A DNA stretch of 64,000 nt from NCBI GenBank assembly GCA_016699595.1, contig CP064982.1:203647-267646 (forward strand), written 5' to 3'. Each line of letters begins with the position of its first letter. The first letter of the stretch is position 1. Of this stretch, positions 26,201 through 43,296 are shown one piece after another. Below the pieces are notes generated by a model that saw only the letters and a list, made by a program, of their open reading frames with translations, ran no database searches and was not told where the DNA came from. A program made the position numbers and the translations under genes. The stretch is from a bacterium (GTDB lineage Bacteria > Patescibacteriota > Dojkabacteria > GCA-016699595).

Positions 26201-28282
26201 CATCCAGAATGCCTCTTGGTCTGTTGTCAATGTATCATCTTTCTTAGCACTATCTGTTATAGTCTTATTCACACGAACTTTTGCACCTACTACAGTAATT
26301 CTGTCACCAAGACCATTTCCAAGTGCGGTATCAACATTATAGTTGCTGTCAATCCAACCTCCATTTACAGGTTGCCATTGTAATGCAGCGTCTTTAAACC
26401 CAAAGTGATTGGCAACTTTTTGATTTAAGGGGGCAGTAGACTTCACGATATAAGGGACTTCTAAAACGAATGAAGCATTGCTGACTTGTTCTTGATAATT
26501 TAATTGTTCAGCAATGGTATAATCTTCGGTAAATAGAACTCTAATTTTTGTAATTGCAGCACTACCACCGGGTACAGAACCTAAATCCGAGTACCATAAT
26601 CCATCAGTTGACTGATTATTTTCGCAATTTGCTGACATTATAGCACTGTCATTAGCCCAATTTATACCTACTCCATTTACTCCTCCTGTGCCATATTGAA
26701 CTATGACATCAGTGAAGCTATCTAGTAGGGACGGATTGTCTACATGTACTATTGCTCCTTCAGCAGTATGGCCTGATATTGGGTAGACCTCTACATATCT
26801 ATTATCGATTTTGGTACATAACATACTACCGGCAATATAAGTCATTTTTCCATTTGGATAAAAAATATTTTTGCTAGAATACAATCCACCTCTTGGAACA
26901 ACACCATCTCCAGATGCATCTGTCGAACCAACGGGCACAATACTCGATAGATAACCAGCGGTTAAGTTACCATCACTGATCAAATTTGCAGTGCTAATAT
27001 TATCAACATATTTATAATCTCTTTTGGCAACTATACCACCTGGAGGTAATGTAATTACATTTACATATCCATTTTCTGAACCATACAAAGAAGTATTAAG
27101 TGTATCTTCATTTGTTAGACCTGTTCCTGGATCACCAGCTCCACCAAAGTTAGCATTGCCTGAGTTTAAGCCAACCGGACTAAAGTTTTCAAACATATTC
27201 AATACATTTGCAAGTTCATAGTTACCAGTTGATGGATTGATATTTAGATCAGTAAATGGTATAAATATTGCTATATAGTCAGAAACAATCCACATGTCAT
27301 TGCTTGAAAGAGTATTCCCGTTTTTTGCAACAGTTGGAAATGTAGAAGGATTTGTATGAGTACTAGAAATTGATATGTTGATAATTTGTGCATCTCCAAG
27401 ACTAGGAGTACAAGTAATTGTACCTGAATCTTCGACAGCATTTGTCGCAGTTGATCCTGAGTAATTGCCAATCTTGCCAAATGGAAAATATTGGACTTGA
27501 AAAGTACTTACGCCACATGCATCAAGTTCTGCATTGGGGCTAATTCCTGAAATATCATCTGTAAATGTCATTGGTAATTGAGGTATTTCTGACCCAGGTT
27601 TCAATTTGACACCTATTCCATAGTACCAAAGTGTTCCAGCTACGCCATCTTTCAACTTTGTACCTCTATATTCTATACTTCCTTTTTGTAAATCAATTTT
27701 AGGTGTAGCAGTTCCTGTTACTGTAGGTGCTGATGCAGTTGTGACATGCGTTGCTCCTGTAGCTGATGCAGTACCAGTTAAAGTAATAGTTGTCCCCTCA
27801 ACTATACTAGGTAAAGCGCGCACATTACCGTATACAGAAGTAATTTCACCGGTGTTTCTAATCCCAGTATTGCATATCAATATTGACTGAGTGTTTATGC
27901 CATCTCCAGTTAATGAGCCTCCTGAACCAAGATTACACCCTACAGGTATTTCCGTCCAAATATATCCTAGTGGTAGTGGATTTAATGTAGCAGTTAGATT
28001 TGCATAAGGTTCTTGAGTACTACCCGTCGAATCAACTAAGTTTAAATCAATTTTATATACTATAAGTTGTCCAGCACGTACTCTGTAATTGTTTGCTGAA
28101 CTATCGTTTCCAATTAAATCATCTATGTCAAAAGGAGAATTGCCATCATACTCAACAGATATAGCAATACCAGCCGTTGTCGTTGAACCATCAGCAGTAA
28201 TCTTTTCGTTTAGTTTACTTGATGCAGTGAAAAAGACGGTTACAATAATCAAAATTAGTGCTGTGATTTTAATTAGTTTCAT
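23246..28282 (-). CDS. giant secreted/cell-surface protein (1678 aa) with a signal peptide, at least three tandem DUF11-type conserved repeat domains and an SdrD-B/Cna-B-like domain; putative adhesin
   Basis: N-terminal signal peptide MKLIKITALILIIVTVFFTASS. Repeats RINGDDANSTPG...ITFEITNTGNT...ISCPKT...GQHTNIANVTGTP occur three times, typical of DUF11. GDYVWVDSNFNGIIDSGELPLAGVLVELID...TGNDGLYLFENLVHGDYKIRF resembles an SdrD B-like domain. Composition is Thr/Ser/Asn/Gly-rich. Confidence 0.8.
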   Translation of the reverse strand: MKLIKITALILIIVTVFFTASSKLNEKITADGSTTTAGIAISVEYDGNSPFDIDDLIGNDSSANNYRVRAGQLIVYKIDLNLVDSTGSTQEPYANLTATLNPLPLGYIWTEIPVGCNLGSGGSLTGDGINTQSILICNTGIRNTGEITSVYGNVRALPSIVEGTTITLTGTASATGATHVTTASAPTVTGTATPKIDLQKGSIEYRGTKLKDGVAGTLWYYGIGVKLKPGSEIPQLPMTFTDDISGISPNAELDACGVSTFQVQYFPFGKIGNYSGSTATNAVEDSGTITCTPSLGDAQIINISISSTHTNPSTFPTVAKNGNTLSSNDMWIVSDYIAIFIPFTDLNINPSTGNYELANVLNMFENFSPVGLNSGNANFGGAGDPGTGLTNEDTLNTSLYGSENGYVNVITLPPGGIVAKRDYKYVDNISTANLISDGNLTAGYLSSIVPVGSTDASGDGVVPRGGLYSSKNIFYPNGKMTYIAGSMLCTKIDNRYVEVYPISGHTAEGAIVHVDNPSLLDSFTDVIVQYGTGGVNGVGINWANDSAIMSANCENNQSTDGLWYSDLGSVPGGSAAITKIRVLFTEDYTIAEQLNYQEQVSNASFVLEVPYIVKSTAPLNQKVANHFGFKDAALQWQPVNGGWIDSNYNVDTALGNGLGDRITVVGAKVRVNKTITDSAKKDDTLTTDQEAFWMLWPNTESMGATPPGFAQNVVLTDTLPQGIAYIPGTALCNLPISMVFQIAPINCEPSITYNVDGTSTLTWNYGDVEVGKLFKFIAFRTDISNLIPSGTMKTNSALISAENDPSMESWRTSTATLQVINTSAFAVEKSTIKPIVEPLDTIEFSLGMTNPGQNPVPSTDLIDWLPWNGDQRTPATNYHGTTILQSISYESGVVPTNILFTKHDRSTLSLPNDLDPISINPAIVWCTQLQFGNIGCPATLNEVTGLRIQTGLLNGGDSSIYKLVMKPQTNSPNMNGDIFTNQFILRASGLALPAVSNNVSVQVLLGEIGDYVWVDSNFNGIIDSGELPLAGVLVELIDINNTVIDSVVTGNDGLYLFENLVHGDYKIRFTPPAGYTYTYPNTGNDTEDSDASLANGISQVITLDIGESDITIDAGFVGSSPSISVVKRINGDDANSTPGLSYEGGSQLNITFEITNTGNTILNNILLEDNVLSESDISCPKTTLIPRESITCTSVFTLPNNAGQHTNIANVTGTPPTLPNGNQPANVTDSDPANAFVPALPGISLIKLINGNDANITPGIYVLPNTPLTIEYQVANTGNVQLNHIVIADDMIATSQINCPSNVLAVGGTMTCTASFTSPASGIQHTNSGTVMGTPSPTPNNLHPSPISDSDPANALSINPAINIIKRINGEDANVEPGIYISAGTLMEITFEVTNIGNITLNDIVVSDTHINTSEINCPKTILLPMESMICTATLIAPENGQHTNTGVVTATPSPLTDGTVPDSISSDDPANAMVSSPKIGLLKKLISSTDLGSNQFKIKYELRFKNVGNMKLHNLQVKDNLRLAFPVPIEISNVVATTDNNFQINSLYDGVTDDNVLIGTDSLGILEEGVIIITLDLKIVGTSRSVFWNSATIKGTSDLSETVIDISDDNTENQSGYNGNNNNVGTDQPDDLNNRTNSGNILPNRLNDPTPVQFEIKLADTGKRNVIFLYLNPLFKL

Positions 28283-30905: not shown

Positions 30906-32765
30906 TTGAGCCTACTTGAGAAAAACGAACTAGATACTGCGAGTTATATCAAAATAGTTAGAAAATATAGTCGAGATGGAAATTCAACATTCAGCAAAGA
31001 TGACATATTGAAAGAAATTGATGTATTGCTAAGGGTAAAAGGTGAATATTGCTTCCTTGGGGAAGCTGGCGAGCGAAGCGAACCTGAAGGGGTTTTGAAA
31101 AACGAATTAGAATCTCTCAAATCTGCAATCAAACTCAAACCAATGCGAACTGAATCAGGAGTTACTACAGTTACGGTTCTGACTAAACCTTATGCTTGCC
31201 CTGGACAATGTATATTTTGTCCAAATGATGTTCGGATGCCAAAAAGTTATATCGCAACTGAACCTGGAGCTCAAAGAGCTCTGATGTTCAGGTTTTCTCC
31301 ATACGCTCAAGTTTGGAATAGACTTAAAGCTTTGCAAAATATAGGTCATCCAACCGACAAAGTCGAAATGCTTGTACTTGGTGGAACTTGGACGAGTTAT
31401 AAAGAAGATTATAAACTATGGTTTACTTACAATCTTTTCAAGGCTATGAATGATTTTGGAGATGGAATTTGTGATGAGAGGTTAATGACAAAGCAAGATA
31501 TAAGTGAGATATTTGAAAATGATTTTAATGATGATATTAGGAAAAATTACTCCTTCACATGGGAAGGTGTCCAGCAAAGCAGGACAGAAGGGGTTAACTC
31601 TTTAATTGATAAAAGTAAAACTAATTTTATTGAATACAACAAACTTCTCCAAACTCAAGAATTTAAGGCGTGGGAAAAAGAAAATGTTGTTGCAGGAGAT
31701 TTTATGAATTCTCCTACATGGGAAATTTTGTTTGAAGAACAAAATCGAAATTCGAAAGGTAAATGTAGATGCGTGGGTTTAGTTTTTGAAACTAGACCAG
31801 ATAGAATTACACAAAAAGAAGTTTTGACTTTACGAAAACTTGGTGCTACAAAAGTTCAACTAGGAATTCAGATCCTAAATGATGAAATTTCAAGTTTGAA
31901 TAAACGAGGTGAGAATATTGAAGATGCTATGAAAGCTTTTGAATTACTTCGACTTTGGGGCTTTAAAATTCATGTTCATATGATGCCAAATTTACTTGGT
32001 GCAACTCCAAAGCTAGACTTGGAAAGTTATAAGTTACTCGTTAATGATCCTCACTTTCTTCCAGATGAAATAAAAATTTACCCAACAAGTTTGATTGCAA
32101 ATACTGAACTTGAGAATGAGTATAAAGCCGGAAACTGGAGACCTTATGAAACTCAAGAATTGGTTGAATTAATCGCTCAAATGATTGCAGAAACTCCAGA
32201 ATATGTAAGGTTAACTCGTATTATTCGAGATATACCAAGTCAAGAAATTGAAGCTGGAAATAAACTTACTAACTTAAGACAAGTCGTTGAGAAGTATATG
32301 CAAGATAATGATATGCAAGATCAAAATATCAGAGCAAGAGAAATTAAACAGGAAAAAGTAACTTTTGTCGATTTGGAATTGAAAATAGTTGAATATCAAA
32401 CTACAATTTCAAAAGAATTGTTTTTGGAATATGTAAAGCCCCCATTGAAAAAGGGGGGCAAGGGGGATTTTATTGCTGGGTTTTTAAGATTGAGTTTGCC
32501 TATTGATAATATTTCTGCCATGATTCGAGAAATTCATGTTTATGGTCCAAGTTTGGAAATTAGCAAAGATAGTTCTGGCGATGCTCAGCATCTTGGACTT
32601 GGGACTAAGTTGATTGAAAAAGCAAAAAAAATTGCGAAAGATTTGGGTTATAATAGCTTGAAAGTAATTTCAGCGATTGGAACTAGAGAATATTATGCCA
32701 AAAGAGGTTTTGAAATGACGGAAGATGGACTTTATCAATTGACAAAACTAAAAGTTAATTTCTAA
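30906..32765 (+). CDS. elp3: Elp3 family tRNA uridine(34) carboxymethyl-modification enzyme (radical-SAM domain plus C-terminal GNAT/KAT domain)
   Basis: Radical-SAM CxxxCxxC in ACPGQCIFCP, the Elp3 core (LVLGGTWTSY, FETRPDRIT), and a C-terminal GNAT fold (HLGLGTKLIEKAKKIA...YYAKRGFE). The TTG start is uncertain. Confidence 0.8.
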   Translation: MSLLEKNELDTASYIKIVRKYSRDGNSTFSKDDILKEIDVLLRVKGEYCFLGEAGERSEPEGVLKNELESLKSAIKLKPMRTESGVTTVTVLTKPYACPGQCIFCPNDVRMPKSYIATEPGAQRALMFRFSPYAQVWNRLKALQNIGHPTDKVEMLVLGGTWTSYKEDYKLWFTYNLFKAMNDFGDGICDERLMTKQDISEIFENDFNDDIRKNYSFTWEGVQQSRTEGVNSLIDKSKTNFIEYNKLLQTQEFKAWEKENVVAGDFMNSPTWEILFEEQNRNSKGKCRCVGLVFETRPDRITQKEVLTLRKLGATKVQLGIQILNDEISSLNKRGENIEDAMKAFELLRLWGFKIHVHMMPNLLGATPKLDLESYKLLVNDPHFLPDEIKIYPTSLIANTELENEYKAGNWRPYETQELVELIAQMIAETPEYVRLTRIIRDIPSQEIEAGNKLTNLRQVVEKYMQDNDMQDQNIRAREIKQEKVTFVDLELKIVEYQTTISKELFLEYVKPPLKKGGKGDFIAGFLRLSLPIDNISAMIREIHVYGPSLEISKDSSGDAQHLGLGTKLIEKAKKIAKDLGYNSLKVISAIGTREYYAKRGFEMTEDGLYQLTKLKVNF

Positions 32766-33599
32766 CCTATCAATTGGACTTTGAATTTTCCTTTTATGAG
32801 CATCAGTAATATGTGTATATATTTGTGTAGTTTTTATATTTTTATGACCCAATAACTCCTGAACCACCCGGATATCTATACCATTTTCTATCAAATGCGT
32901 TGCAAAGCAGTGCCTAAGAGTATGAACGCTCGCAGGCTTATTTACTTCGGAACTCAATAATGCATTTTTAAAAACTTCTTGTACACTTCTTACATTATAC
33001 ATTTCACCACTTCTTCCCTCAAAAATATATTTCTTAGGTTGATATTTTACATAATACTTTCGAAGCAATAATAAGATGTTCGAAGATAACATAACTTCTC
33101 TATCTCTATTACCTTTCCCTCCACGAATCAATATTGTCATCCTTTTGGAATCAATATCCGCTATTTCCATCTTCACTAGTTCTGATACTCGTAATCCTGC
33201 ACTATAAATCAGGGAAACTATTGCCCGATGTTTTATATTTTTGATGCTTTGTATGATCTTCTTGATATCTTCCTCTGATAAAACAAATGGCAATTTATAA
33301 ACTCGTCTATCTGGATAAATATAATCAATTTGAATTTCCAGTTTAAGTACATATTTATAAAATAATTTTATTGAGCTAATGATACCCTTCTGTGCAGACT
33401 GAGAAATATTCTGTTCATTAATTTTGTAGCAAATATATTGTAATACGTCACTTTCGGAAATGCTATTAATTTCTTTGTTTGCAAAATATTTGAGGAAGTC
33501 TTTGATATAGGAAGAATAAGCACGAATAGTATTTGGCGAGTATCTCTTTACCTTCAATATTTCGATGAACTTCGTGATTAGTGACTCTGGCGGATTCAT
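32748..33599 (-). CDS. tyrosine-type site-specific recombinase / phage integrase family
   Basis: Catalytic tail HTLRHCFATHL...LLGHKNIKTTQIYTH (R..H..R...Y). Its 3' end overlaps the elp3 stop by 18 nt. Confidence 0.85.
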   Translation of the reverse strand: MNPPESLITKFIEILKVKRYSPNTIRAYSSYIKDFLKYFANKEINSISESDVLQYICYKINEQNISQSAQKGIISSIKLFYKYVLKLEIQIDYIYPDRRVYKLPFVLSEEDIKKIIQSIKNIKHRAIVSLIYSAGLRVSELVKMEIADIDSKRMTILIRGGKGNRDREVMLSSNILLLLRKYYVKYQPKKYIFEGRSGEMYNVRSVQEVFKNALLSSEVNKPASVHTLRHCFATHLIENGIDIRVVQELLGHKNIKTTQIYTHITDAHKRKIQSPIDRLEINF

Positions 33600-33729
33600 A
33601 ATACACTATTATAGCAAAAATATTAGTGTATAATCTAGTAAAGTTCGTATAACCTAGTGTTATATGACATATTTTGATGGCAATAAAAAACGAAGGTTTT
33701 AAAAACTTTTATTAAGATACAATATTATT

Positions 33730-34419
33730 ATGAAAACAGTAGGAATAATTGGAGGTCTTGGACCAGAAACAACATCGGAATTTTACCTAGATGTAGTTTT
33801 TTCGTGCCAGAAAAAAGACAAAACTCATAGGCCTTCAATCATAATCGCCAGCGTCCCTTTGCCATACAAAATTGAAGAAGAAGCTATTGCTAAAAACATT
33901 GGATTTGAAAGAATACCTCCTTTTTTAATTGAAGAGGCAAAAAGACTAGAAAAAGCTGGTGCTGATTTTATTGTTATGCCGTGTAATTCTTTGCATGTTT
34001 TTATCAAAGAGATCAGGGACGCTGTCGATACTCCTGTTTTAAGTATCGTGGAAGAAACGGTAAAATTCCTCAAGAGAAATAATTTGAATAAAGTAGGCAT
34101 TGTTTCTACTTCTGCGACGATTAAGAATAAATTATACGAGAATGCCTTCGCTGAGAATAAAATTGGTTACGAAACTCCAGACGATTTTCAACAAGCGAAA
34201 ATGGGTAAATTTATTCTTAATCTTGTTACTGGAATGCAGAATAACAGAGATAGAGATGAACTTATTCAAATTATTTCTGATTTTGAAAAGAAAAATGTTG
34301 ATTGTGTCGTGTTGGCATGCACAGACCTCCAATTATTAATCCCTCAACATCCATCCTTAAAGATATTCGACACAATGAAAATATTTGCCGATGCAACTGT
34401 TGAGGAATTATTAAAATAA
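33730..34419 (+). CDS. aspartate/glutamate racemase family protein
   Basis: GIIGGLGPETT (GG[LM]GP), PCNSLH and VLACTDL (the two catalytic Cys regions). Confidence 0.7.
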   Translation: MKTVGIIGGLGPETTSEFYLDVVFSCQKKDKTHRPSIIIASVPLPYKIEEEAIAKNIGFERIPPFLIEEAKRLEKAGADFIVMPCNSLHVFIKEIRDAVDTPVLSIVEETVKFLKRNNLNKVGIVSTSATIKNKLYENAFAENKIGYETPDDFQQAKMGKFILNLVTGMQNNRDRDELIQIISDFEKKNVDCVVLACTDLQLLIPQHPSLKIFDTMKIFADATVEELLK

Positions 34420-34449
34420 AAGTTTTTAAAATTATTATAAAATTGCCAT

Positions 34450-34625
34450 CAAAATACGCTAAAGCCCCACTGCGCTCTCGCTTCACTGCGTTACGCTCGG
34501 GTCATATAACACAGTATATGCGGTGAGAGCCTTGCAGGCTCTCACCCATATTCCGCTACAATTTTTAAAATGATAAAATAATGGTGTAGCGGAACATCGC
34601 ATATACTGGAACGTTAGGCGAAATA
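34450..34625 (+). repeat. GC-rich structured repeat R1, copy a (contains a perfect 10-bp hairpin GGTGAGAGCC/GGCTCTCACC)
   Basis: Shares ordered blocks with copy b at ~36860-37015: GCCCCRCTGCGCTCTC, then RTATAACACAGTRTATGCGGT, then a GC hairpin, then ACCCATATT, then ...AACGTTA. Local GC is about 50% against a ~30% background. Confidence 0.6.
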
Positions 34626-34653
34626 ATTCAAAATTAATTTAAAACTTTTTACT

Positions 34654-35166
34654 ATGAAACATACTTTATTATTCTTAATCACTATAACAATTATGAGTAT
34701 CTTTTTATCAGGCTGTAATAACAATTCGACGCAGAAAAATGAAGTTGATATTGTTTATCAAGCAATTAACATGATATCTTCCAATAATAATCTAGTTAAT
34801 AAAACTCCTTCTGAACTGTATGAATTATTAAATTTAAGTAAAGATATTTACAAAATTACCACACACTCGCATTCAGAAAATTATCAAAATTTACAAATAT
34901 CAGTAATTGATAAAAAGATTGGTGCATATGATTTAGCGAAAAAGATGAATATATCTAACGCTAATGCATATGAAGTGAATGCAGAACATTCGATATGGGT
35001 TATTGGAAGTAAAAATGAACCATTTGAATCATATAATGGATTAAATATCGATATTCATATTACCTATCCAAGTAAAAATTCAATTAAGGGTAGTTCATAT
35101 TCTGGAAATACAGGAAGCCTCAAAAATACATATATTGATTACATATACATAAATATACCAGAATAA
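34654..35166 (+). CDS. lipoprotein (lipobox LSGC), unknown function
   Basis: N-terminus MKHTLLFLITITIMSIFLSGCNNNS is a SPase II signal with Cys+1. Confidence 0.6.
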   Translation: MKHTLLFLITITIMSIFLSGCNNNSTQKNEVDIVYQAINMISSNNNLVNKTPSELYELLNLSKDIYKITTHSHSENYQNLQISVIDKKIGAYDLAKKMNISNANAYEVNAEHSIWVIGSKNEPFESYNGLNIDIHITYPSKNSIKGSSYSGNTGSLKNTYIDYIYINIPE

Positions 35167-35534
35167 AAATTAATTTTGAATTACATCGCCTAACACTGAG
35201 TATCCGGTTCCACAAAATGGACTCAATAATAAAGATAAAGACTGTCCATTTTGTTCCACCCAAGTTTTTTGCCAACAAATATGCTGAAACTGAATGTCTT
35301 CCAGTAAATAAACAAAAGTGCTAGGATACACGTAAATACTGAGAAATCCGGCAAAAAACTTCCGATACTCAGAAACGTTATACGCAATTCAAAAAATATT
35401 TTTCTTATAGTAAGGAATTTTGACAGACTTTTAAAAAGAGGAATAAATTTGTTTTTTTATTTATGCTGATGGGGATAGCGGTATTTTCTCCGCTATCGCT
35501 CCGAAAATGGTTTATAATTTAACTAAACATAATT

Positions 35535-36737
35535 ATGGGATTTGAAGATTACACTCCACCAATAGATGATATTAAAACTGGCATACAACCAGAAGTAACA
35601 GAAAGTGGTCCTAAACCACCAGTTTTGTCATTCAAAAGGAATAGTGATATTCACTTTGAAAGGTTTGGACAAACTTTTACATACGACAGTATTGCCCTTT
35701 ATCAAGAGGAAGGAAATCTGGTTACTCTTGATAGTTTGGAAAAGCTACCTCCTTCCGTTTTGCTTCAAACTGTTCTGAATATTTCTCAAATGATTGAATT
35801 ACAACAAGATATTAAGGCTTTTTCTGAAGGTGGGCTTGATATTGATGCGGCAGTAGAAAATGGCGAAGAAGTTTTAGCAATGCAATTTCAAGATATTAGA
35901 AAAGTTTTAGATGATTTGGCTTTTACCCAACAATTTTCAAAAGATGATCTTACCAAAATGCTTGACTATGTTTATGGAACCGGAAAGCCCAAGCCTTTCA
36001 CTGAAGGATTATCGTCAGTACTTTTCGCCTCTGCTTTAGCATTTCAGAGAGAACTACTTTATTCAGCCATGGAATCTCGAAAAATGAGTTTAGAAGAAGC
36101 ATCGGGAATCATTAGGAAACTTCCTTACGGAGGAACATTTTTGCTTGAGGGTGAACCAACGCTTAATGAGCTCTCGCAATTTTTTACTCAAACTGAAGAC
36201 GAAGCTGAAAAGAACTTAGTCGTAGATCAGCAAGGAAGGTATTTTTTAGTCCAAGGAATGAGCAAAGATACTGGTGTTATAACATATAGAAGTTTCCCTG
36301 ATTTGGTTGCAGATTATCATACGCACAGAATTGATTACCCTTTTTCCGCAGGAGATATTGGCGCTTATAAAGCTTTAGGTGACTCCAGAGATATTTATTC
36401 AATTACTTCTGACGAAGTAAGATTTTTCGTATGTAGTCCCAGTGGAATTTTTGAATTTGAAGGAAATTTGGAAGAAAATGTCTTTGATAAGCAGGACAGA
36501 AAAAATGATAGTGTAATGATTCCTTGCACTGTCATAAATGAAGATACAGGAGAACAAGCAAGTTTTGATGTTTATACTAATCATGCAATAGGAGAATCCG
36601 GTAGATTTATACAAGAACAAATGGAGAAAAAACCTAGACGACTAAGAATTGAACTTGAGAATGGTGATATTATTCGTTTTACTTCATGGGAGGAATTAAA
36701 GAGAGGTGATAAATTAAATTCAGATAATCATGAATAA
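35535..36737 (+). CDS. hypothetical protein (400 aa) with a possible JAMM-like HxH...SxxD motif
   Basis: Clean ATG ORF with acidic composition. YHTHRIDYPFSAGD resembles the JAMM metal site, but the spacing is one residue short. A GC hairpin (GATAGCGG...CCGCTATC) lies just upstream at ~35470-35495. Confidence 0.5.
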   Translation: MGFEDYTPPIDDIKTGIQPEVTESGPKPPVLSFKRNSDIHFERFGQTFTYDSIALYQEEGNLVTLDSLEKLPPSVLLQTVLNISQMIELQQDIKAFSEGGLDIDAAVENGEEVLAMQFQDIRKVLDDLAFTQQFSKDDLTKMLDYVYGTGKPKPFTEGLSSVLFASALAFQRELLYSAMESRKMSLEEASGIIRKLPYGGTFLLEGEPTLNELSQFFTQTEDEAEKNLVVDQQGRYFLVQGMSKDTGVITYRSFPDLVADYHTHRIDYPFSAGDIGAYKALGDSRDIYSITSDEVRFFVCSPSGIFEFEGNLEENVFDKQDRKNDSVMIPCTVINEDTGEQASFDVYTNHAIGESGRFIQEQMEKKPRRLRIELENGDIIRFTSWEELKRGDKLNSDNHE

Positions 36738-36859
36738 ATAAGGAGTTTTGGTTTTTTGGCATTCACCCCTAACCCCTCCGCCCAAAATCCAAAACAAAAA
36801 ACAAATTTATGATTATTGAATAAAAAGCCTGTCAAAATGAAATTGAATGAAAAATATTT

Positions 36860-37015
36860 TTTGAACTCGCTCCTTTCAGTCGCGCCCCGCTGCGCTCTCC
36901 TCCCTTCGGTCGTCGGGGCGTATAACACAGTGTATGCGGTTCGGGGTTCGGCTCGCCCCTTACCCATATTTTTGCTCCCGTTGGTCGCAACTTCTCATAT
37001 CCGCAAACGTTATAT
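36860..37015 (+). repeat. GC-rich structured repeat R1, copy b
   Basis: See copy a; same orientation, about 2.4 kb downstream. Partial related fragments are at ~35178-35200 and ~35355-35385. Confidence 0.6.
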
Positions 37016-37089
37016 ATAATTTGAATCAGGAATAAAAAGAAAATAATGTGAAGGTAAAAATTTATATAGATTGCTAATTCATCAATATT

Positions 37090-37987
37090 ATGGACAAAAA
37101 AATCATAAATCATTACTTACAATTCGGCACATTTACTAACCCGGGCTGTTACAAAGAATTTCTTCAAAATCTTCCAGATGATGTCAAAGAACTGGGCAAT
37201 TTAATCAGTCATCAAGTTATTCATCGCGTTACACTCAAAGAAGGCAACACAAAATCTAACAGGGATTTACGATATGGGGATATGAAAAGATATCCTTGGC
37301 ATAGATTGAGATGTGAAGATGATATTTTGCCTACTACCGTTTCAATGATTGCAGAATTATTAAGATTTGATGACCGAGGGTTTTTGCCCGACAGAAAAGT
37401 TGAAAATAAAATTGTTGTCACCTGTCGTTTTGTGGCAATACTTATGGCTTCAATTTTAAAGTCAAAAGGTGTCCCTTGCAGAGTCCGTTCGGGATTTGCC
37501 CCCTATTTTTCAAAGGCAGTTGGGATCATTGGATAAATCAATACTGGGATAAAGATAAACAAAAATGGATTACTTTTGACGCTGATGGATTTTTTGACAG
37601 TACTATTGGTTTTGACCAGTATGATATGCCTGCGAAAAAGTTGATTGGGCAGCAGATACATGGCTCGGAATAAGAGGGGGCAAACTAGATGCCAACAACT
37701 TTAGAAATGCAGATGGTTCTGTTGGACTTATGCCAGTTCTTTGGGCAATATTTTATGATTTTCATAGTTTAATGAATAACGAAATTCTTTATAATCAAAT
37801 GCCTAGTTATATCTATTTCAAATTTGATAAATTGACTGAAAAAGATTTTGAAGAAATTGATGAATTAGCCAAATTGATGTTAGAACCAGATAAAAACTTT
37901 CATGAATTAGTCAAAATTTGGAATACAAAAAAGAAATTCAGAACTTTGAATGGTCCACTTATTAGTGATAGTGATCATTTTAAATAG
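37090..37987 (+). pseudogene. transglutaminase-like cysteine protease domain protein disrupted by two frameshifts at homopolymer runs
   Basis: The core Cys (VTCRFVAIL), His (GSWDHW) and Asp (FDADG) are split across three frames. Breaks are at the T5 run (~37506) and the A5 run (~37634), and the reading frame continues into ORF 37730..37987. Confidence 0.6.
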
Positions 37988-38172
37988 AAATAAATTTTAA
38001 GTACCTACTTACTACTTATGAAAAATTACAAAACATTGATGCTATATTATTTGACATGATGGGTGTTCTGCTTTTTCAAAGAAAAGATTATATCCCGAAC
38101 AAACTTGTTGATGAAATAGATTCTAAGATTGGAGATGTAACAAATGACGATATTTTCAAGCAAGAAACTGTG

Positions 38173-38270
38173 CAAGAATTTGGGTTATAATAGCTTGAAA
38201 GTAATCTCAGCAATCGGAACTTGAGAATACTAGGTTTTGAAATGACGGAAGATGGGATGTATCAGATTGT
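38173..38270 (+). repeat. degenerate duplicate (~85% identity, 12-bp deletion) of the elp3 3' end (32634-32745); attR-like island boundary
   Basis: TTTGGGTTATAATAGCTTGAAAGTAAT[C/T]TCAGC...GTTTTGAAATGACGGAAGATGG is shared with the elp3 C-terminal coding sequence. Confidence 0.75.
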
Positions 38271-38322
38271 AAATATTCAAACATGTTTTGTAATTACTAA
38301 CATAAATTGGTATAATATCATT

Positions 38323-38670
38323 ATGAAAAAGACATTTATTACATTTTTAAGTGCATTACTAATATTTCTTCTAATTACAATTGTTTATCTTTTTGTCCAA
38401 AATTACTTTCAAGGTGATTTGAGAATTTCTGGATTGGTTCAATATCATAAGGCTGATCTCACGATATCTGCAGACGCACCAGAAGGATACTTTATTGAAT
38501 CTTCTGCAATAGGTAGAATTTATCTCCGTTATGGAAAGAACGAAAATCTAGCAGAGCTATTGGATAAAAACATTGTTGCTAAAGGATTGATGAGCAATCG
38601 ACTTTTGTGTGGTAATGATGGAGGATTATGTTATCCGGTTGTCAAGATAGAAATGGTTGAAGTGAAGTAG
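38323..38670 (+). CDS. small secreted/membrane-anchored protein, unknown
   Basis: Starts MKKTFITFLSALLIFLLITIVYLFV (signal anchor). The upstream part of track ORF 38221.. is translated elp3-duplicate sequence and is unlikely to be coding. Confidence 0.4.
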   Translation: MKKTFITFLSALLIFLLITIVYLFVQNYFQGDLRISGLVQYHKADLTISADAPEGYFIESSAIGRIYLRYGKNENLAELLDKNIVAKGLMSNRLLCGNDGGLCYPVVKIEMVEVK

Positions 38671-38785
38671 AGTCTATAAATAATGATTGTTTGGCAGGAT
38701 TTGTATGGTTTGGATTTACTTTCTACAAGTACTTTGTTTCTTATTGTATTGAACTAGGGTTGTAATGATCTCTCATATCAGTAAT

Positions 38786-38860
38786 TCTGACGTAGGTCCT
38801 TTCAATTTTATAAAACGCAATGGCTAAACCTAACAAAAACTTTAAGGAAGTCAATCTGGA
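38786..38860 (+). repeat. R2 repeat copy a
   Basis: CTGACGTAGGTCnTTTCAATTTTA(T)AAAACGCAATGGCTAAACCnAAnAAAAACTTTAAGGAAGTC recurs at 40465-40540. Confidence 0.6.
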
Positions 38861-39000
38861 AGAGTATGAAAGAAGACATTCCTACAATAAATCATATATA
38901 CACACATATGAAAAATACGCAACTTACCTATCTTTGTATTTTGCAGTATCTTTAGGTGTCATAGGTTACATCTTTTTTTGATAAAGATATAGGAGCATTC

Positions 39001-40110
39001 TTGAAAAATCTCAATCAATTTACACTTGATACACAATGGTTATACTTTACAATTTTTCTTTTTTTTGCAATTCTTATGTATTATTTATTGTCATGCTTAC
39101 TTAGTAAATTAGAATCAATATATATAAATGCAACAAGAATAAACATTTTAGAAAAAAGTTGTAACAAAATGTTTGGTCCGGATTTCATAGCTTATGAAGT
39201 GATGAAACCACGATACTTTATTTCAATTTTGGTTATTTTCATGGGTTCTATTTACTCACTTTTACTTAGTTTTTTATGTTTCATATTAGCAAACGACTTA
39301 GTATATTTTTTTGTGCTATTTACATTTTTGTTCTCAGTTTTAATACCTTATCGGTTTTATATAGTTAATACAGCTCTTATAAAAACAAATATTCGTAATG
39401 AATACGAGTTGTCTTTATCTAATAATGTGCAAGACATCTTTAAAGTAAACAAGCTAATTTTTGCACCTATTCTAACCTTGATGTTTGGAATAGTTAGTTT
39501 CTTTGTTTTGTCTTTAAAAGACGGTTCATTTTTAACGAATTCAAAAGTAGACTATCCACTGCTAGCTGTGCCAACAATATATATAGGCGATTTAATCCTG
39601 TTACCGTTAATAAACTATAGCACAGCTAAACTAGTGTTTGAATATAAAGAGTTTATTAAGAAATTCTTTAAGCAGTGGCGTTTTAAGGCTGTCTTGTTTT
39701 TATCACTTTGCATAGCAACTTTCTTTAATATTAAAACGCATAAAGTATGGGAAGGTGATAATTTCAATGGATTTATAGATATGAATCAAAAGTTAACAAC
39801 TGCAGGTCAAATTCACCTGGTTTTCAGTATAATAAATATGTTTGTAATTCTTTTTATTATTCTAATATCGATTTATGCATATTTGAACAAGTACAAAGTA
39901 ATATTTAATAAAACGATTGATATTTGGAAATACCTAATTGCTTTCTCAAGTTTATCAATTTTGGATTTCTTATATAGATATTATTTTATGAATTTCAACA
40001 ATGAGGCCTTTGGTCTGTTTTTGAAAAGTAACTCAATATCATTTTTACTATTGTATTTTAGTTTGGCAGTATTTTTAACTTTGAAAATACTTCAAAAAAG
40101 AATACGGTAA
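39001..40110 (+). CDS. polytopic membrane protein (369 aa), unknown
   Basis: About 9-10 hydrophobic helices, TTG start, bracketed by the two R2 copies. Confidence 0.5.
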   Translation: MKNLNQFTLDTQWLYFTIFLFFAILMYYLLSCLLSKLESIYINATRINILEKSCNKMFGPDFIAYEVMKPRYFISILVIFMGSIYSLLLSFLCFILANDLVYFFVLFTFLFSVLIPYRFYIVNTALIKTNIRNEYELSLSNNVQDIFKVNKLIFAPILTLMFGIVSFFVLSLKDGSFLTNSKVDYPLLAVPTIYIGDLILLPLINYSTAKLVFEYKEFIKKFFKQWRFKAVLFLSLCIATFFNIKTHKVWEGDNFNGFIDMNQKLTTAGQIHLVFSIINMFVILFIILISIYAYLNKYKVIFNKTIDIWKYLIAFSSLSILDFLYRYYFMNFNNEAFGLFLKSNSISFLLLYFSLAVFLTLKILQKRIR

Positions 40111-40464
40111 GAAGATGTTTTTAAAGTACGCCTAAAAACTTCTATTGAACTTTACTGCTAAAAGCATATTGGATTGTCAAGTCAATGTTGCGTTATTTTA
40201 AATTTGGCTAATGCACAAATTGTTATAAGTTTGAAATAAAGATTAGCAGTTTAGTATAGGATATATAAACAATATCCCTACTCCATTCTAACTTTCAAAC
40301 CCTCAATCTCACCTACTATTCTTCGCGATTCGAGGTTGTATACAACTAACTTTGAGTTATTCGGTCTTCCTTGAAAGCCATCTATTCTAGCATTCTCAAA
40401 ATCATGTATGTCTTTGAGTTCATACTTTTCTAGAAAAAGAAACAAACCATCTTCTCCTGACGTA

Positions 40465-40540
40465 GGTCATTTCAATTTTAAAAACGCAATGGCTAAACCC
40501 AATAAAAACTTTAAGGAAGTCTTTGATACACGAGAAATAA
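40465..40540 (+). repeat. R2 repeat copy b
   Basis: See copy a. It runs directly into the integrase remnant. Confidence 0.6.
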
Positions 40541-40700
40541 GCACGAATAGTATTTGGCGAGTATCTCTTTACCTTCAATATTTCGATGAACTTCGTGATT
40601 AGTGATTCTGACAGATTTATAATTAATACACTATAAATAGCAAAAATATTAGTGTATAATGTAGCAAAGTTCGTATAACCTAGTGTTGTCCGAAATTCTC
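40528..40700 (-). pseudogene. remnant of a tyrosine integrase gene: 5' ~90 bp of coding sequence plus upstream region, about 90% identical to 33494-33690, with the start codon mutated
   Basis: AAGCACGAATAGTATTTGGCGAGTATCTCTTTACCTTCAATATTTCGATGAACTTCGTGATTAGTGA and the promoter-region block TAGCAAAAATATTAGTGTATAAT...AGTTCGTATAACCTAGTGTT are duplicated. The CAT (ATG) at the start position is now TAT. Confidence 0.7.
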
Positions 40701-40779
40701 TTTTGTGAAATAGTTTTAATAAGGAAAATTTTTTGGAACTTTTTATTTTTAATTTAATAATTTTTTAACAAATACTACT

Positions 40780-41388
40780 ATGGAAAACTCCAACGAACAG
40801 TCGCAAGGACAGACCATAAAGTGTCCTTCGTGCAAAGAAGCTATTCAGCTTGGCGCAAAGAAATGCAAACATTGTGGCGCAGATTTGAGAAATTGGTTTG
40901 TTAGGCACAAAGTCATAACTGGTATACTGATTATTATTGGAATTGGAATTATTGGAAGCGCTATGGGTGGCAATGAAACAAAAAATACTTCTGACAGCTC
41001 GTCCACCACTAACAATGTACAAGAGGCTAAGTCTACTGCAGATGTAAAAGCTGAAGCAGACACTAAAGTAGCAGAAAGCGTGCCAGCTGAATATAAATCT
41101 GCTTTGAGCCAAGCAGAAACTTATGCCAACACAATGCACTTGTCAAAGCAGGGCGTCTACGATCAGCTTGTTTCAGAGTATGGTGGAAAGTTTCCAAAAG
41201 AAGCCGCACAATATGCAATTGATAATGTAAAAGCTGATTGGAACGCAAATGCGCTTTCTCAAGCAAAAACTTACCGAGATACTATGCACTTATCGACAGC
41301 AGCAGTTCGTGACCAGCTCATTTCAGAATATGGAGCAAAGTTTACAAAAGTAGAGGCAGACTATGCCATTCAGCATCTCAATGATTAG
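40780..41388 (+). CDS. Ltp-like protein: N-terminal zinc ribbon (CPSC...CKHC), TM helix, and two tandem host-cell-surface-exposed-lipoprotein (HcsEL) type repeats
   Basis: The repeats ALSQAETYANTMHLSKQGVYDQLVSEYGGKFPKEAAQYAIDN and ALSQAKTYRDTMHLSTAAVRDQLISEYGAKFTKVEADYAIQH resemble the phage TP-J34 Ltp superinfection-exclusion repeat family. GC is about 40%. Confidence 0.55.
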   Translation: MENSNEQSQGQTIKCPSCKEAIQLGAKKCKHCGADLRNWFVRHKVITGILIIIGIGIIGSAMGGNETKNTSDSSSTTNNVQEAKSTADVKAEADTKVAESVPAEYKSALSQAETYANTMHLSKQGVYDQLVSEYGGKFPKEAAQYAIDNVKADWNANALSQAKTYRDTMHLSTAAVRDQLISEYGAKFTKVEADYAIQHLND

Positions 41389-41529
41389 TGTGTCTATTGT
41401 TTTTCCATGGAGTTAAAAAATGCGAATTGAGATAAAAAGTGCCAAAAAATTATCTTTTATAATTTCACAAAAGAGAACTCAAGGGGACGTTGCGCTTTTG
41501 ATTTCTCTTTTTAGATTTTAAAGCTAAGG

Positions 41530-41680
41530 AAAGAAATCAAACCCTCGGACAACACCGAATAAACGGAAAATGCCTCGGCTCGGCATTTTCGCAAATTCGT
41601 TTTCACTAAGTTTCAAACGAACTTCGTTTATTCGGAAACGTTGTCCGACATATTTTTCTGAAAATTTTTACAAGAAAGTT
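41530..41680. other. structured inverted-repeat region between convergent genes (nested hairpins; possible bidirectional terminator or small RNA)
   Basis: Outer arms CGGACAAC..GAATAAACG / CGTTTATTCGGAAACGTTGTCCG. Inner 9-bp hairpin GAAAATGCC/GGCATTTTC and a second hairpin TTCGTTT/AAACGAA. Confidence 0.4.
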
Positions 41681-41718
41681 GTTGAAGAATTAAAATAACG
41701 AAACAAATTTTTATTATT

Positions 41719-43296
41719 TTACAACGGCAACATTTTAAACTGCTTGACCCTTTCCTTACACTTCTCCTCCCCAATCAACCACATAGTCTCAGGAAAAGGT
41801 GGTGAAAATTGTTTTCCCCAAAGAATTACTCGAAGTAACATAAATATATCTTGCGCTTTGTCTCCATTTTCTTCTGCGACTTTTTTTACTTTCGCAACCC
41901 AATCTTCTTTACTCAAACTAAAATCCAAAATATCTTTTTCTATAATTTGCAAATATTTCTCAAACCAAGCTTTATCTTTATTTTCTAAACCTTTTATTTC
42001 TTTCAAATTTAGCTTAGTATAATCTGGATTAGTTTCAAATAGTTTTAACTCTTCTACAAAATCTTGAAGTAAAGTAGTTCTTTCTTGTAATAATTTAAGC
42101 TTTTCATCAAAAATTTTAATGTCTCGATTTTGCGAGACTGAAGGGGTGAAAAGATCTATATTCTCAGGTTCAAATTTTGTGACGTAATTTTTGATCTCAC
42201 TTTTAAGTTCTTCAATTGTCAATTTTCGAATATAAACTCCTTGAAACCAATCAATTTTCTTTTGATCAAATGTAGGATTTGCTTTTTGAATTCCATCTAC
42301 ATCAAATTGCTTGACAAACTCTTCTAAATTAAATATTTCAGGATAAACATCAACTCCAGCTTCATTCTTTATAGCTTTAGGTGCCCAACCTAGCAACATT
42401 AGATAATTTAACAATGCTTCTTTCAAATAACCACTTTTCAACCATGGCATAACTCCAAACATTCCTTCTAAATCACGTTTGCTAAATTTCTTGCCAGTTC
42501 TTGGATCCATTATAACTGGAAAATGCCAAAAGTTTGGTCTTGTTAGGTTTAAGCTGTCATAAAGAAACAAATGAATAGGAGTAGTTGAGAGCCATTCAAA
42601 ACCACGCATCACATCAGTAACTTGCATATCACTATCATCAACCACAACAGCAAGATGATAAGTCGGAAACCCATCTGACTTGAGTAAAACTAAATCTTGA
42701 ATTTCTTTGAAATCAAATTCAACTTTCTTTTTCAAAATCACATCTTCCCAACTAACTTTTCCAGAGTAGGGAATCATTGGACGAATTACAAAAGATTCAC
42801 CATTTTTAATTTTCTCATCACAAAGTTTGAGATATTCCTGCCAATTATTTTCAGATTTAAATTTATCTGCAAATTTTCTTGCTTGAGGTTTTTCTTTTAG
42901 TTTCATAAATTCCTCAGCAACTTCTTCATTATCTTCTTTTTTAATCGCATGAGAATAGCTAGATTTTATTTCTTCTTTAGTTCTTTTCTCAGAATCAAAG
43001 TCATAGTATGCAGCTCCAATTTCAGCTAACTTTCTTGCAACTTCCTGATACCTTGCAATTCTATCTGACTGACGAAACAATTCATCATACTTAATTCCGA
43101 AATCACTCAAAATATCTATAATTGCAGTTTCTGTATCTTTTCTTGAACGAACCTGATCAGTATCTTCAATTCTCAATATAAATTTACCATTGTTTTTCTT
43201 TGCCCAAGCATAACTCCATAAAGCTCGGATGACAAATCCTAAGTGGACTGATTCAGGAGTTCCAGTAGGTGATGGTGCGAAACGAGTGATTGTCAT
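41719..43296 (-). CDS. gltX: glutamyl-tRNA synthetase
   Basis: RFAPSPTG...LHLG, ILRIEDTDQVRS, KFSKRDL (KMSKS). 525 aa. Confidence 0.85.
   Translation of the reverse strand: MTITRFAPSPTGTPESVHLGFVIRALWSYAWAKKNNGKFILRIEDTDQVRSRKDTETAIIDILSDFGIKYDELFRQSDRIARYQEVARKLAEIGAAYYDFDSEKRTKEEIKSSYSHAIKKEDNEEVAEEFMKLKEKPQARKFADKFKSENNWQEYLKLCDEKIKNGESFVIRPMIPYSGKVSWEDVILKKKVEFDFKEIQDLVLLKSDGFPTYHLAVVVDDSDMQVTDVMRGFEWLSTTPIHLFLYDSLNLTRPNFWHFPVIMDPRTGKKFSKRDLEGMFGVMPWLKSGYLKEALLNYLMLLGWAPKAIKNEAGVDVYPEIFNLEEFVKQFDVDGIQKANPTFDQKKIDWFQGVYIRKLTIEELKSEIKNYVTKFEPENIDLFTPSVSQNRDIKIFDEKLKLLQERTTLLQDFVEELKLFETNPDYTKLNLKEIKGLENKDKAWFEKYLQIIEKDILDFSLSKEDWVAKVKKVAEENGDKAQDIFMLLRVILWGKQFSPPFPETMWLIGEEKCKERVKQFKMLPL

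Follow-up and report, generated by a model that had tools for sequence, protein, structure and literature searches.

The region described here lies between positions 32748 and 41721 of a 64,000-nucleotide stretch of contig CP064982.1 from a Dojkabacteria genome (this whole stretch is called the window below), and the interval that had been flagged in it runs from 38173 to 41388. An earlier description made from the letters alone, which we refer to as the sequence-only reading, had seen in that interval a decayed second mobile element next to an island with its own integrase. What is found in the region is an intact tyrosine recombinase gene, an attI-like site and same-strand cassettes that end in attC-type hairpins, an arrangement that we call the platform. 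The flagged interval is probably the far end of an integron-like gene-cassette platform that sits in the chromosome of a bacterium of the candidate phyla radiation (CPR; Patescibacteria-type). The features that this reading is built on are the following, where the slash in G/TT marks the crossover point and R1 is the covariance model described below.

32748..33599, minus strand: intact tyrosine recombinase gene, IntI/XerA-like, 283 aa (PF00589 and PF13495); outside the flagged interval, it defines the platform
33640..33661, plus strand: attI-like core, AAAGTTCGTATAACCTAGTG followed by TT; kept beside the recombinase start in CPR relatives, with divergence exactly after GTT; cassette 1 runs from 33660
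34501..34622, plus strand: attC-type site of cassette 1 (the racemase cassette); R1 match at E = 1.5e-4; reverse-complementing its R'' box GTCATATAAC gives the cassette start GTTATATGAC
35185..35386, plus strand: attC-type site of cassette 2, a long variant; 10 of 11 positions of L'' and L' are paired, and the start of this cassette is matched by R''; partial covariance-model match, E = 0.43
36917..37018, plus strand: attC-type site of cassette 3, degenerate; R''/L'' are 80% identical to those of the cassette 1 site and L' is unpaired; z = 0.2; covariance-model E = 0.43
40666..40687, plus strand: second attI-like core, the same as 33640-33661 at 22 of 22 nt; G/TT at 40685-40687
40686..41640, plus strand: Ltp cassette, 955 bp, from the TT of one G/TT to the G of the next; its start GTTGTCCGA matches the reverse complement of its R'' box
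40780..41388, plus strand: Ltp-family gene; its product has a zinc ribbon at the N-terminus (PF13248), a single transmembrane helix and the PF07553 repeat twice
41544..41649, plus strand: attC-type site of the Ltp cassette; best covariance-model match in the whole window, E = 3.7e-5
41641..41721, plus strand: tail of about 80 nt after the Ltp attC, running to the gltX stop codon

Entry sites and cassette ends

The attI-like site is made up of a left arm (TTCGTATAAC), a 5-nt spacer (CTAGT) and then G/TT, and on the plus strand after the recombinase gene it reads AAAGTTCGTATAACCTAGTGTT. The copy beside the intact recombinase is nearly palindromic (CGTATAAC-ctagt-GTTATATG). The window holds two such cores with different cassettes behind each, and a TGTATAAT motif upstream of the site is present in both copies, at 40653-40660 in the second. 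A degenerate-pattern scan for attI in a metagenome collection gave 15 matches, two of which were real, both being duplicates of known loci.

The cassettes share one orientation and a layout with a single open reading frame (ORF), and each cassette ORF is followed by an imperfect palindrome of 90-200 nt. Its layout is seven nucleotides and AAC, 1-2 nt, a box of about 10 nt and, on the far side, the complementary box, 4-5 nt and GTT. The units start with about 9 nt (GTTATATGA, GTTAGGCGA, GTTATACGC and GTTGTCCGA) that are the reverse complement of the AAC box at their own 3' end. This match to the unit's own R'' is the signature of an integron cassette, that is, of a circular cassette linearised at G/TT inside its attC. 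Boxes were compared within and between units, for sites that had been picked on these same criteria. The cassette start and the reverse complement of R'' agree at 6-7 of 7 nt within a unit and at 2.8 of 7 between units, and the paired positions of L'' and L' average 9.2 of 10 within a unit and 5.4 of 10 when cross-paired. The L'' boxes themselves are all distinct in sequence (13 of 13). The bottom strand of the cassette 1 site folds at -32.4 kcal/mol (z = -8.9) and that of the Ltp site at -32.9 kcal/mol (z = -8.2), the latter with its R stem set off from its L stem by a bulge of 3 nt; in silico, both strands of the attC sites fold about equally well. The third site (36917-37018) does not fold and looks chimeric. 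A first attC scan with lax thresholds, which gave 30 matches against 21 in shuffles, was superseded by a chained test and by the covariance model.

The covariance model, R1, was built from 20 attC sites taken from other genomes only (Bacteroidota, Ignavibacteriota, Calditrichales and CPR contigs). RNAalifold predicted 15 pairs on its alignment, with compensatory changes in all 15. When R1 was run over both strands of the 64 kb with filters off, its top two matches were 41544-41649 (E = 3.7e-5) and 34501-34622 (E = 1.5e-4), which are the sites predicted after the Ltp gene and after the first cassette; it gave no match between 37.0 and 41.5 kb. Across 97 loci of relatives the model found 74 matches at E <= 0.01, and at each locus these were confined to one strand and one side of the recombinase gene. 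In CPR, as in locus L010 of the Calditrichales, they are found upstream of the gene and divergent from it; in Bacteroidota, Ignavibacteriota and others they are downstream, in the orientation of the gene.

Cassette turnover is seen when relatives of the recombinase are compared. Three of them (P0004, P0002 and P0012) each occur on many contigs with a protein that is 100% identical and a conserved attI adjoining, and from GTT on the sequence differs from sample to sample. Among the P0004 loci, the first cassette is AraC/GyrI-like in L081 and L084-L086 and a glyoxalase in L083, and L082 equals L081 plus one BtrH_N-like cassette, placed at G/TT between ...GAGTG and TTGTAGGC and ending in ...GAAAACG. 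Two different first cassettes go with P0002 and at least five with P0012, including a glyoxalase/TfoX/GyrI set. With 15 junctions anchored on the site, the left arm (AACTTCG[C/T]ATAT..) and the spacer are conserved and the sequences diverge right after GTT. The L118 junction reads ...GCATATCC-AGAAAC-GTT where the others read ...GCATATCC-TAGTG-TT; its spacer is of the attC type (AGAAACGTT), and having come from the attC partner it hints that the exchange is sometimes resolved on the left side of the spacer instead. Relatives also vary in the chromosomal neighbourhood of the recombinase gene. The other first cassettes linked to P0012 include those for an Erm-like rRNA adenine dimethylase and a major facilitator superfamily (MFS) transporter (L113, L115 and L116) and an AccI-type restriction enzyme with a methyltransferase (L114), which is cargo of resistance and defence type in CPR arrays.

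The cassettes of the window have some structural peculiarities of their own. Inverted repeats of 28-72 nt bracket each cassette ORF and extend the R-box pairing far past 7 bp (33670-33713 with 34415-34456, 34613-34640 with 35167-35194, 35388-35457 with 36796-36865, and 40696-40746 with 41432-41477), and in a circular cassette they would lengthen the attC stem. We know of no canonical integron cassettes with such long repeats bracketing the ORF. The repeats are interrupted by G+C-rich modules of about 55 nt (34464-34524 and 36884-36940, 80% identical) that lie just 5' of, and reach into, the R''/L'' boxes of cassettes 1 and 3. At the equivalent place the Ltp cassette has another insert, of 67 nt with its own hairpin (41497-41541), which is absent from the copy in the related locus L123. 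The unit 37011-38177 contains three ORFs (37090-37536, 37476-37673 and 37730-37987) that overlap like parts of one frameshifted gene and have no family match. A terminator scan did not rise above the shuffled expectation, and an Rfam search of 32-42 kb returned no family.

The Ltp cassette and the duplicated sequences

The Ltp gene has a G+C content of 0.42 against about 0.31 locally. It had been described as a GC-elevated gene for a zinc-ribbon and transmembrane protein with two Ltp repeats, and profile searches bear this out: PF07553 is found twice (E = 8.7e-44, 147.9 bits against a cutoff of 23.2), and phrog_4980, annotated as superinfection exclusion, matches at E = 3.6e-57 over 165 residues. 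The protein is predicted to have a cytoplasmic zinc ribbon, a K/R-rich segment, one transmembrane helix and two external Ltp repeats; it shows no lipobox or signal peptide and no Cys after the transmembrane helix. PADLOC gave no defence-system match beyond a marginal one, and no phage genes were found around the gene in the window. Ltp of phage TP-J34 acts at the envelope against phage DNA entry, and by analogy the protein encoded here most likely blocks phage DNA entry at the envelope. The two are alike in having two tandem Ltp repeats predicted to lie on the outside of the membrane. They differ in the anchor, which here is a zinc ribbon and a transmembrane helix with no signal peptide or lipobox, and in the setting, which for the Streptococcus thermophilus phage is a prophage lysogeny module and here is an integron-type cassette in a CPR chromosome.

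The nearest homologue of the protein is P0122 (85%). Another homologue, P0127 (72% amino acid identity; loci L123 and L124), stands divergently beside a recombinase that belongs to the family but shares just 39% identity. At the nucleotide level the window and L123 are homologous from exactly GTT (window 40685, L123 5916) through the ORF to 41478, and once more in a stretch that covers the 3' half of the attC together with the tail (41600-41721 against L123 6731-6856, 75%); upstream of GTT the two share only the TCGTATAA arm. R1 matches L123 at 6682-6780 (E = 8.5e-4), and the L boxes differ between the two cassettes, being of the CCGAATAAACG/CGTTTATTCGG type in one and of the CATATCTGG/CAGATATCC type in the other, with each pair still complementary. 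On these alignments, a phage-exclusion-type Ltp gene appears to circulate as a cassette between platforms. The recombinase gene call in L123 (4976-5968, 330 aa) crosses attI into the Ltp cassette, so its N-terminal residues, about 55 of them, are probably untranslated and the product would be about 275 aa, as in the family. In the window, the first 9 nt of the Ltp cassette recur in the R' box that follows its attC (GTTGTCCGAC), and the sequence then goes on with CATATTTTT, like the start of cassette 1 (41640-41665 compared with 40685-40694 and 33659-33684). An idea that arose from short matches, that the tail 41641-41721 is an internally deleted racemase cassette, was dropped because the tail is also present in L123, without a racemase.

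To the left of this cassette, the flagged interval holds the following.

38178..38264, plus strand: pseudogenised copy of the Elp3 3' end (last ~97 bp, without the final 9 codons), about 91% identical to 32641-32737
38323..38670, plus strand: gene for a small secreted or membrane-anchored protein, 115 aa, from the ORF list; no Pfam, PHROG or PADLOC match
38787..38852, plus strand: R2a, a 66-bp repeat made up of the upstream 33 nt and first 11 codons of gene X
38820..40110, plus strand: gene X, polytopic membrane protein, 429 aa with one T removed from the T7 run at 38973-38979
40457..40521, plus strand: R2b, a 66-bp copy of the gene X 5' end, 94% identical to R2a (blastn E = 3.9e-22)
40504..40620, minus strand: recombinase remnant, codons 1-39, with the start codon changed from ATG to ATA; tblastn 85% over residues 1-39

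The repeats were tested by formal self-alignment, a 14-kb self-comparison (30-44 kb) with blastn, and the duplicated blocks named in the sequence-only reading are present on formal alignment. The copy of the Elp3 3' end that it had called attR-like is real, as is the duplicate of the integrase 5' end, given as about 90% identical with a mutated start: the recombinase 5' end and its upstream sequence are repeated at 89.7% over 184 bp (33483-33661 against 40504-40687, E = 1.4e-65). These pieces keep the order and orientation of the first copy and stand 2.24 kb apart instead of 0.75 kb, and the proposal of an eroded second copy of the neighbouring element's left end (Elp3 3' fragment, recombinase 5' end and site, in the same order) holds. 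The R2 repeat, too, exists at 94% identity; it measures 66 bp rather than the 75 bp first given, and its second copy, placed at 40465-40540, lies at 40457-40521. It does flank a membrane-protein gene, which appears as two ORFs only through an extra T.

The Elp3 copy carries a 10-bp deletion and an in-frame TGA. Six of the eight substitutions in the Elp3 repeat fall at codon position 3 (binomial p ~0.02, with small numbers), a bias that hints that the copies diverged as working genes in different lineages. In gene X, the extra T in the T7 run splits the frame into ORFs of 53 and 369 aa, and this could be either a real frameshift or a residual homopolymer error of long-read sequencing. The repaired product aligns over residues 10-426 with the 449-aa P0242 (36%) and over residues 1-428 with P0243. 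Given that it aligns with homologues from the first residues, R2a holds the native start of gene X, and the view of R2 as the att sites of a second element gives way to one in which R2a is the gene X 5' end and R2b a copy of it at a microhomology. The last 19 nt of R2b overlap the recombinase homology and form this microhomology joint, where R2a (CAAAAACTTTAAGGAAGTC) and recombinase codons 33-39 (CAAAATATTTGAGGAAGTC) agree at 16 of 19 nt (R2a, R2b and 33473-33520 compared). From its sequence, the joint between R2b and the remnant appears illegitimate and microhomology-mediated in shape, not site-specific. Illegitimate recombination would have joined a copy of the gene X 5' end to codon 39 of the recombinase, an event that cut short the second recombinase gene and left R2 as a by-product. 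R2 was also considered as a diverged further piece of recombinase, and this was rejected given that the family profile is silent in the left 48 nt of R2 and that R2a is the gene X N-terminus. Against six frames of 36700-41800, that profile matched at positions 3-38 only and found no other recombinase remnant.

The recombinase and the competing explanations

The recombinase of the platform, with Phage_integrase and SAM-like domains, is of the simple two-domain XerA/IntI-like type and has no arm-binding domain, and its catalytic R-K-H-R-H-Y positions are invariant across the family alignment. It scores 233 bits with the XerA model NF040815, just over the cutoff of 220, and 219.7 bits with the IntI model TIGR02249, under the cutoff of 265 and with the match split in two stretches. 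Its residues 181-202 stand opposite residues 180-244 of VchIntIA (IntI4, PDB 2a3v), that is, 22 residues against 65, so the IntI-specific segment of about 40 residues (the I2 helix) is missing. An AlphaFold model (predicted local distance difference test, pLDDT, 86.6) has no helix longer than 3 residues within 186-201, and a structure search with this model gives the XerA entries 5hxy and 4a8e as best by E-value and aligns 2a3v with about 35 gap columns. The insertion is likewise absent in 9 relatives, which miss the IntI cutoff in a similar way; the ones checked are 269-283 aa long. The nearest relatives (60-65% identity, 277 aa) are in Nomurabacteria, Pacebacteria and Dojkabacteria, all CPR, and Bacteroidota members are at about 53%. 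An exact-sequence look-up of the window recombinase returned no record. A search of genome contigs gave relatives at <=47% identity only, with no close CPR relative, and was useful for the arrays of Bacteroidota and others; it contained no strain with an ancestral Elp3-gltX locus. As its recombinase lacks the IntI-specific insertion, the platform is to be regarded as an integron variant and not as a canonical member.

Observed here are the repeats, the sites, the cassette boundaries, the turnover in relatives and the missing IntI insertion. One explanation, closer to the sequence-only reading, is that two conventional islands or prophage remnants entered the Elp3 3' end successively, with the R2 and Elp3 repeats as att sites, the truncated gene as an integrase of phage type and Ltp as a superinfection-exclusion moron left over from a prophage. 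Direct repeats of the Elp3 3' end do flank a 5.4-kb block (32738-38177) with a recombinase gene at its edge, and the six of eight third-position substitutions suggest that both copies were functional while they diverged in separate lineages. Ltp-family genes are typically found in prophages, and in L123 a terminase-like gene and a serine recombinase are close to the Ltp copy. We nevertheless find this explanation unlikely. Pfam and PHROG searches of 32.7-41.7 kb show no phage structural, replication or lysis genes, and the absence of an arm-binding domain and the presence of same-strand cassettes with attC fit poorly with a mobile element that has a conventional integrase; the neighbouring island, which had been taken for one, looks instead like an integron-like cassette platform with attI, attC and cassettes. 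The Ltp gene had been taken for a prophage leftover, and it is bounded not by phage DNA but by an attI core (40685-40687) and the attC at 41544-41649. The R2 repeats are hard to keep as att sites when R2a is the native start of gene X.

It is less probable still that the recombinase is a housekeeping dimer resolvase of the XerA type, with the attI-like site as its dif and the flanking genes resembling an integrative mobile element exploiting Xer (IMEX). The best family model, NF040815, is passed over its cutoff, the best structures are those of XerA (5hxy and 4a8e), and the first attI is nearly a palindrome; in single-Xer systems, dif often adjoins the xer gene. Set against this, the right arm of the site is not conserved and differs from one first cassette to the next, among relatives as well as in the window, and the partner sites are hairpins of 90-200 nt with conserved structure and variable sequence, not 28-bp copies of dif. 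The differing chromosomal neighbourhood of the recombinase gene among relatives speaks against a housekeeping role too. A dif site at a replication terminus was rejected for the window, where there is no GC-skew switch at the locus. Finally, the second copy could be an assembly artefact in which two strain variants were joined in tandem, since the source is a metagenome-assembled genome, the copies are about 90% identical, a typical distance between strains, and at least one homopolymer frameshift suggests residual sequencing error. This we hold to be very improbable. The second copy is not a collinear allele, as its fragments of 87 bp and 184 bp are split by unrelated genes; it has a stop codon, a deletion and a mutated start, and the joint with gene X is a clean microhomology fusion.

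The integron-like platform, which we prefer, also has evidence that weighs against it. Half of the window's attC sites (two of four) are weak or degenerate, and no attC was found for what would be cassette 4 (37011-38177) or for the segment 38265-40456. A scan for consensus promoters showed no excess over shuffled sequence, CPR promoters being not defined. Further close homologues of Ltp, in L125-L127, have no attC and are ordinary genes, so the family occurs both inside cassettes, as in L123 and the window, and outside them. The 80-nt tail is conserved together with the Ltp cassette, which a simple cassette model does not predict. The recombinase is without the IntI-specific insertion and under the IntI family cutoff, and no recombination product, either a circle or an empty site, has been observed for this genome.

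If the platform works as its sequence suggests, the recombinase would bind the constant left arm of attI and the L and R boxes of a folded or extruded attC and would presumably catalyse strand exchange at G/TT, by which circular cassettes would be inserted through their attC (R''-L''-variable loop-L'-R') beside a putative platform promoter. With entry through attC, the first nucleotides of a resident cassette are the TT-proximal half of its R box, and the hairpin forms its other end. The orphan second site, which has an intact core, could serve in trans for the intact enzyme, and it puts the Ltp cassette behind a retained copy of the promoter-proximal region, which may supply a promoter. If the two attI cores, which are in direct orientation, recombined with each other, the whole intervening stretch would be lost. 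Three histories are possible. A circle with the Elp3 3' end, recombinase, attI and cassettes 1-4 may have been inserted in the manner of Campbell next to an older platform, a scenario that fits both the successive integration proposed in the sequence-only reading and the third-position bias. Alternatively, there may have been a tandem duplication followed by replacement of the recombinase body, or two independent platforms.

Relation to known cassette systems

The platform shares several traits with chromosomal (sedentary) integrons. The recombinase gene is divergent from the array and adjoins a site with the crossover at G/TT, the cassettes are single-ORF and on the same strand with R''-L''-loop-L'-R' palindromes whose R'' is complementary to their own start, and the first cassette turns over between otherwise identical loci. 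The cargo is also typical (glyoxalase, GyrI-like, DUF1801, restriction-modification and defence). It differs in the recombinase, which has 22 residues where VchIntIA has 65, no I2 helix and a score that misses the IntI cutoff. In the window the R and L stems are split by an asymmetric spacer of 1 nt against 4 nt (a 3-nt bulge when folded), long inverted repeats run past the R box around each ORF, and the host is a member of the CPR. XerA/dif of archaea (PDB 4a8e and 5hxy) provides the closest solved relatives in both sequence and fold, simple two-domain recombinases of about 280 aa. Unlike XerA with its one conserved 28-bp dif, the site here is constant in the left arm only, and its partners are long hairpins at cassette ends. 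Sedentary chromosomal integrons have been described as defence biobanks whose cassettes carry anti-phage defence (bioRxiv 10.1101/2024.07.02.601686). The platform is comparable in that a gene of the phage-resistance type is stored as a cassette, with restriction-modification cassettes in the related array L114, and it departs from them in host phylum, in recombinase type, and in that Ltp would act by exclusion at the envelope, not by intracellular immunity.

Detection methods bear on how such loci are classified. By the definition of IntegronFinder (Cury et al. 2016, PMC4889954), which needs the intI_Cterm profile, an array of this kind would count as a CALIN, a cluster of attC sites without an integron integrase, provided that its attC sites were picked up. 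The same study judged recombinases without the intI_Cterm region near attC sites not to be IntI, and the standard detection tool leaves out recombinases without the I2 segment (PMC4889954). Unlike in CALINs, an intact and conserved tyrosine recombinase and an attI-like site are always adjacent here, and cassette gain and loss map to that site. The I2 segment, a helix near patch III by which integron integrases are defined, is given as necessary for attC recombination (Messier & Roy 2001, cited in PMC4889954; PMC7790495). Escudero et al. regard its acquisition as a key innovation for which evolutionary intermediates are lacking (PMC7790495); the helix docks extrahelical bases of the folded attC and is described as having made single-strand cassette recombination possible (PMC7790495). 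Archaeal IntIs carry the additional domain (Ghaly et al., PMC9668308). In a full-text literature search of limited coverage, no arrays of this kind were found in CPR or with I2-less recombinases.

A wider proposal, which we put forward tentatively and hold with somewhat less belief than doubt, is that short XerA/IntI-like recombinases without I2 may run complete, active integrons, with an attI of their own and canonical-looking attC cassettes, in CPR, Bacteroidota, Ignavibacteriota, Gemmatimonadota and others. If this were true, I2 would not be required for attI x attC capture, and many arrays filed as integrase-less CALINs would be complete platforms. Integron integrases having evolved from Xer, the I2-less enzymes would then be either the intermediates that are missing from this path or a solution reached in parallel, and arrays of this kind would be a main way in which CPR bacteria gain envelope and anti-phage genes, the Ltp cassette among them. 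Active enzymes would make the I2 requirement directly testable, lead to reclassification of part of the CALIN class, and reveal a gene-capture system in ultra-small symbiotic bacteria whose routes of horizontal gene transfer are poorly known. The locus would also mean that a platform can hold a second, orphan entry site deep in its array.

Some observations were made alongside these results. Long canonical-looking attC arrays (GTTAGGC.../...GCCTAAC, about 120 nt) are present in L005, L008, L015, L016, L018, L021, L023, L028, L037, L044 and L072, at positions >10,800, in Bacteroidota, Ignavibacteriota and other genomes. They lie directly downstream of, and co-oriented with, recombinases of 269-283 aa, and all six of the enzymes scanned are without the IntI insertion. 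The array of Algibacter onchidii (L016) has at least 10 attC sites. Genes for large serine recombinases (Resolvase, Recombinase and Zn_ribbon_recom) recur a few kb away on the non-array side in several CPR loci (L082 11759-15449, L083 10489-11814, L110 3704-5236 and L123 3617-4936). Upstream of the region, the window contains a very large minus-strand ORF at 23246-28282 (1678 aa).

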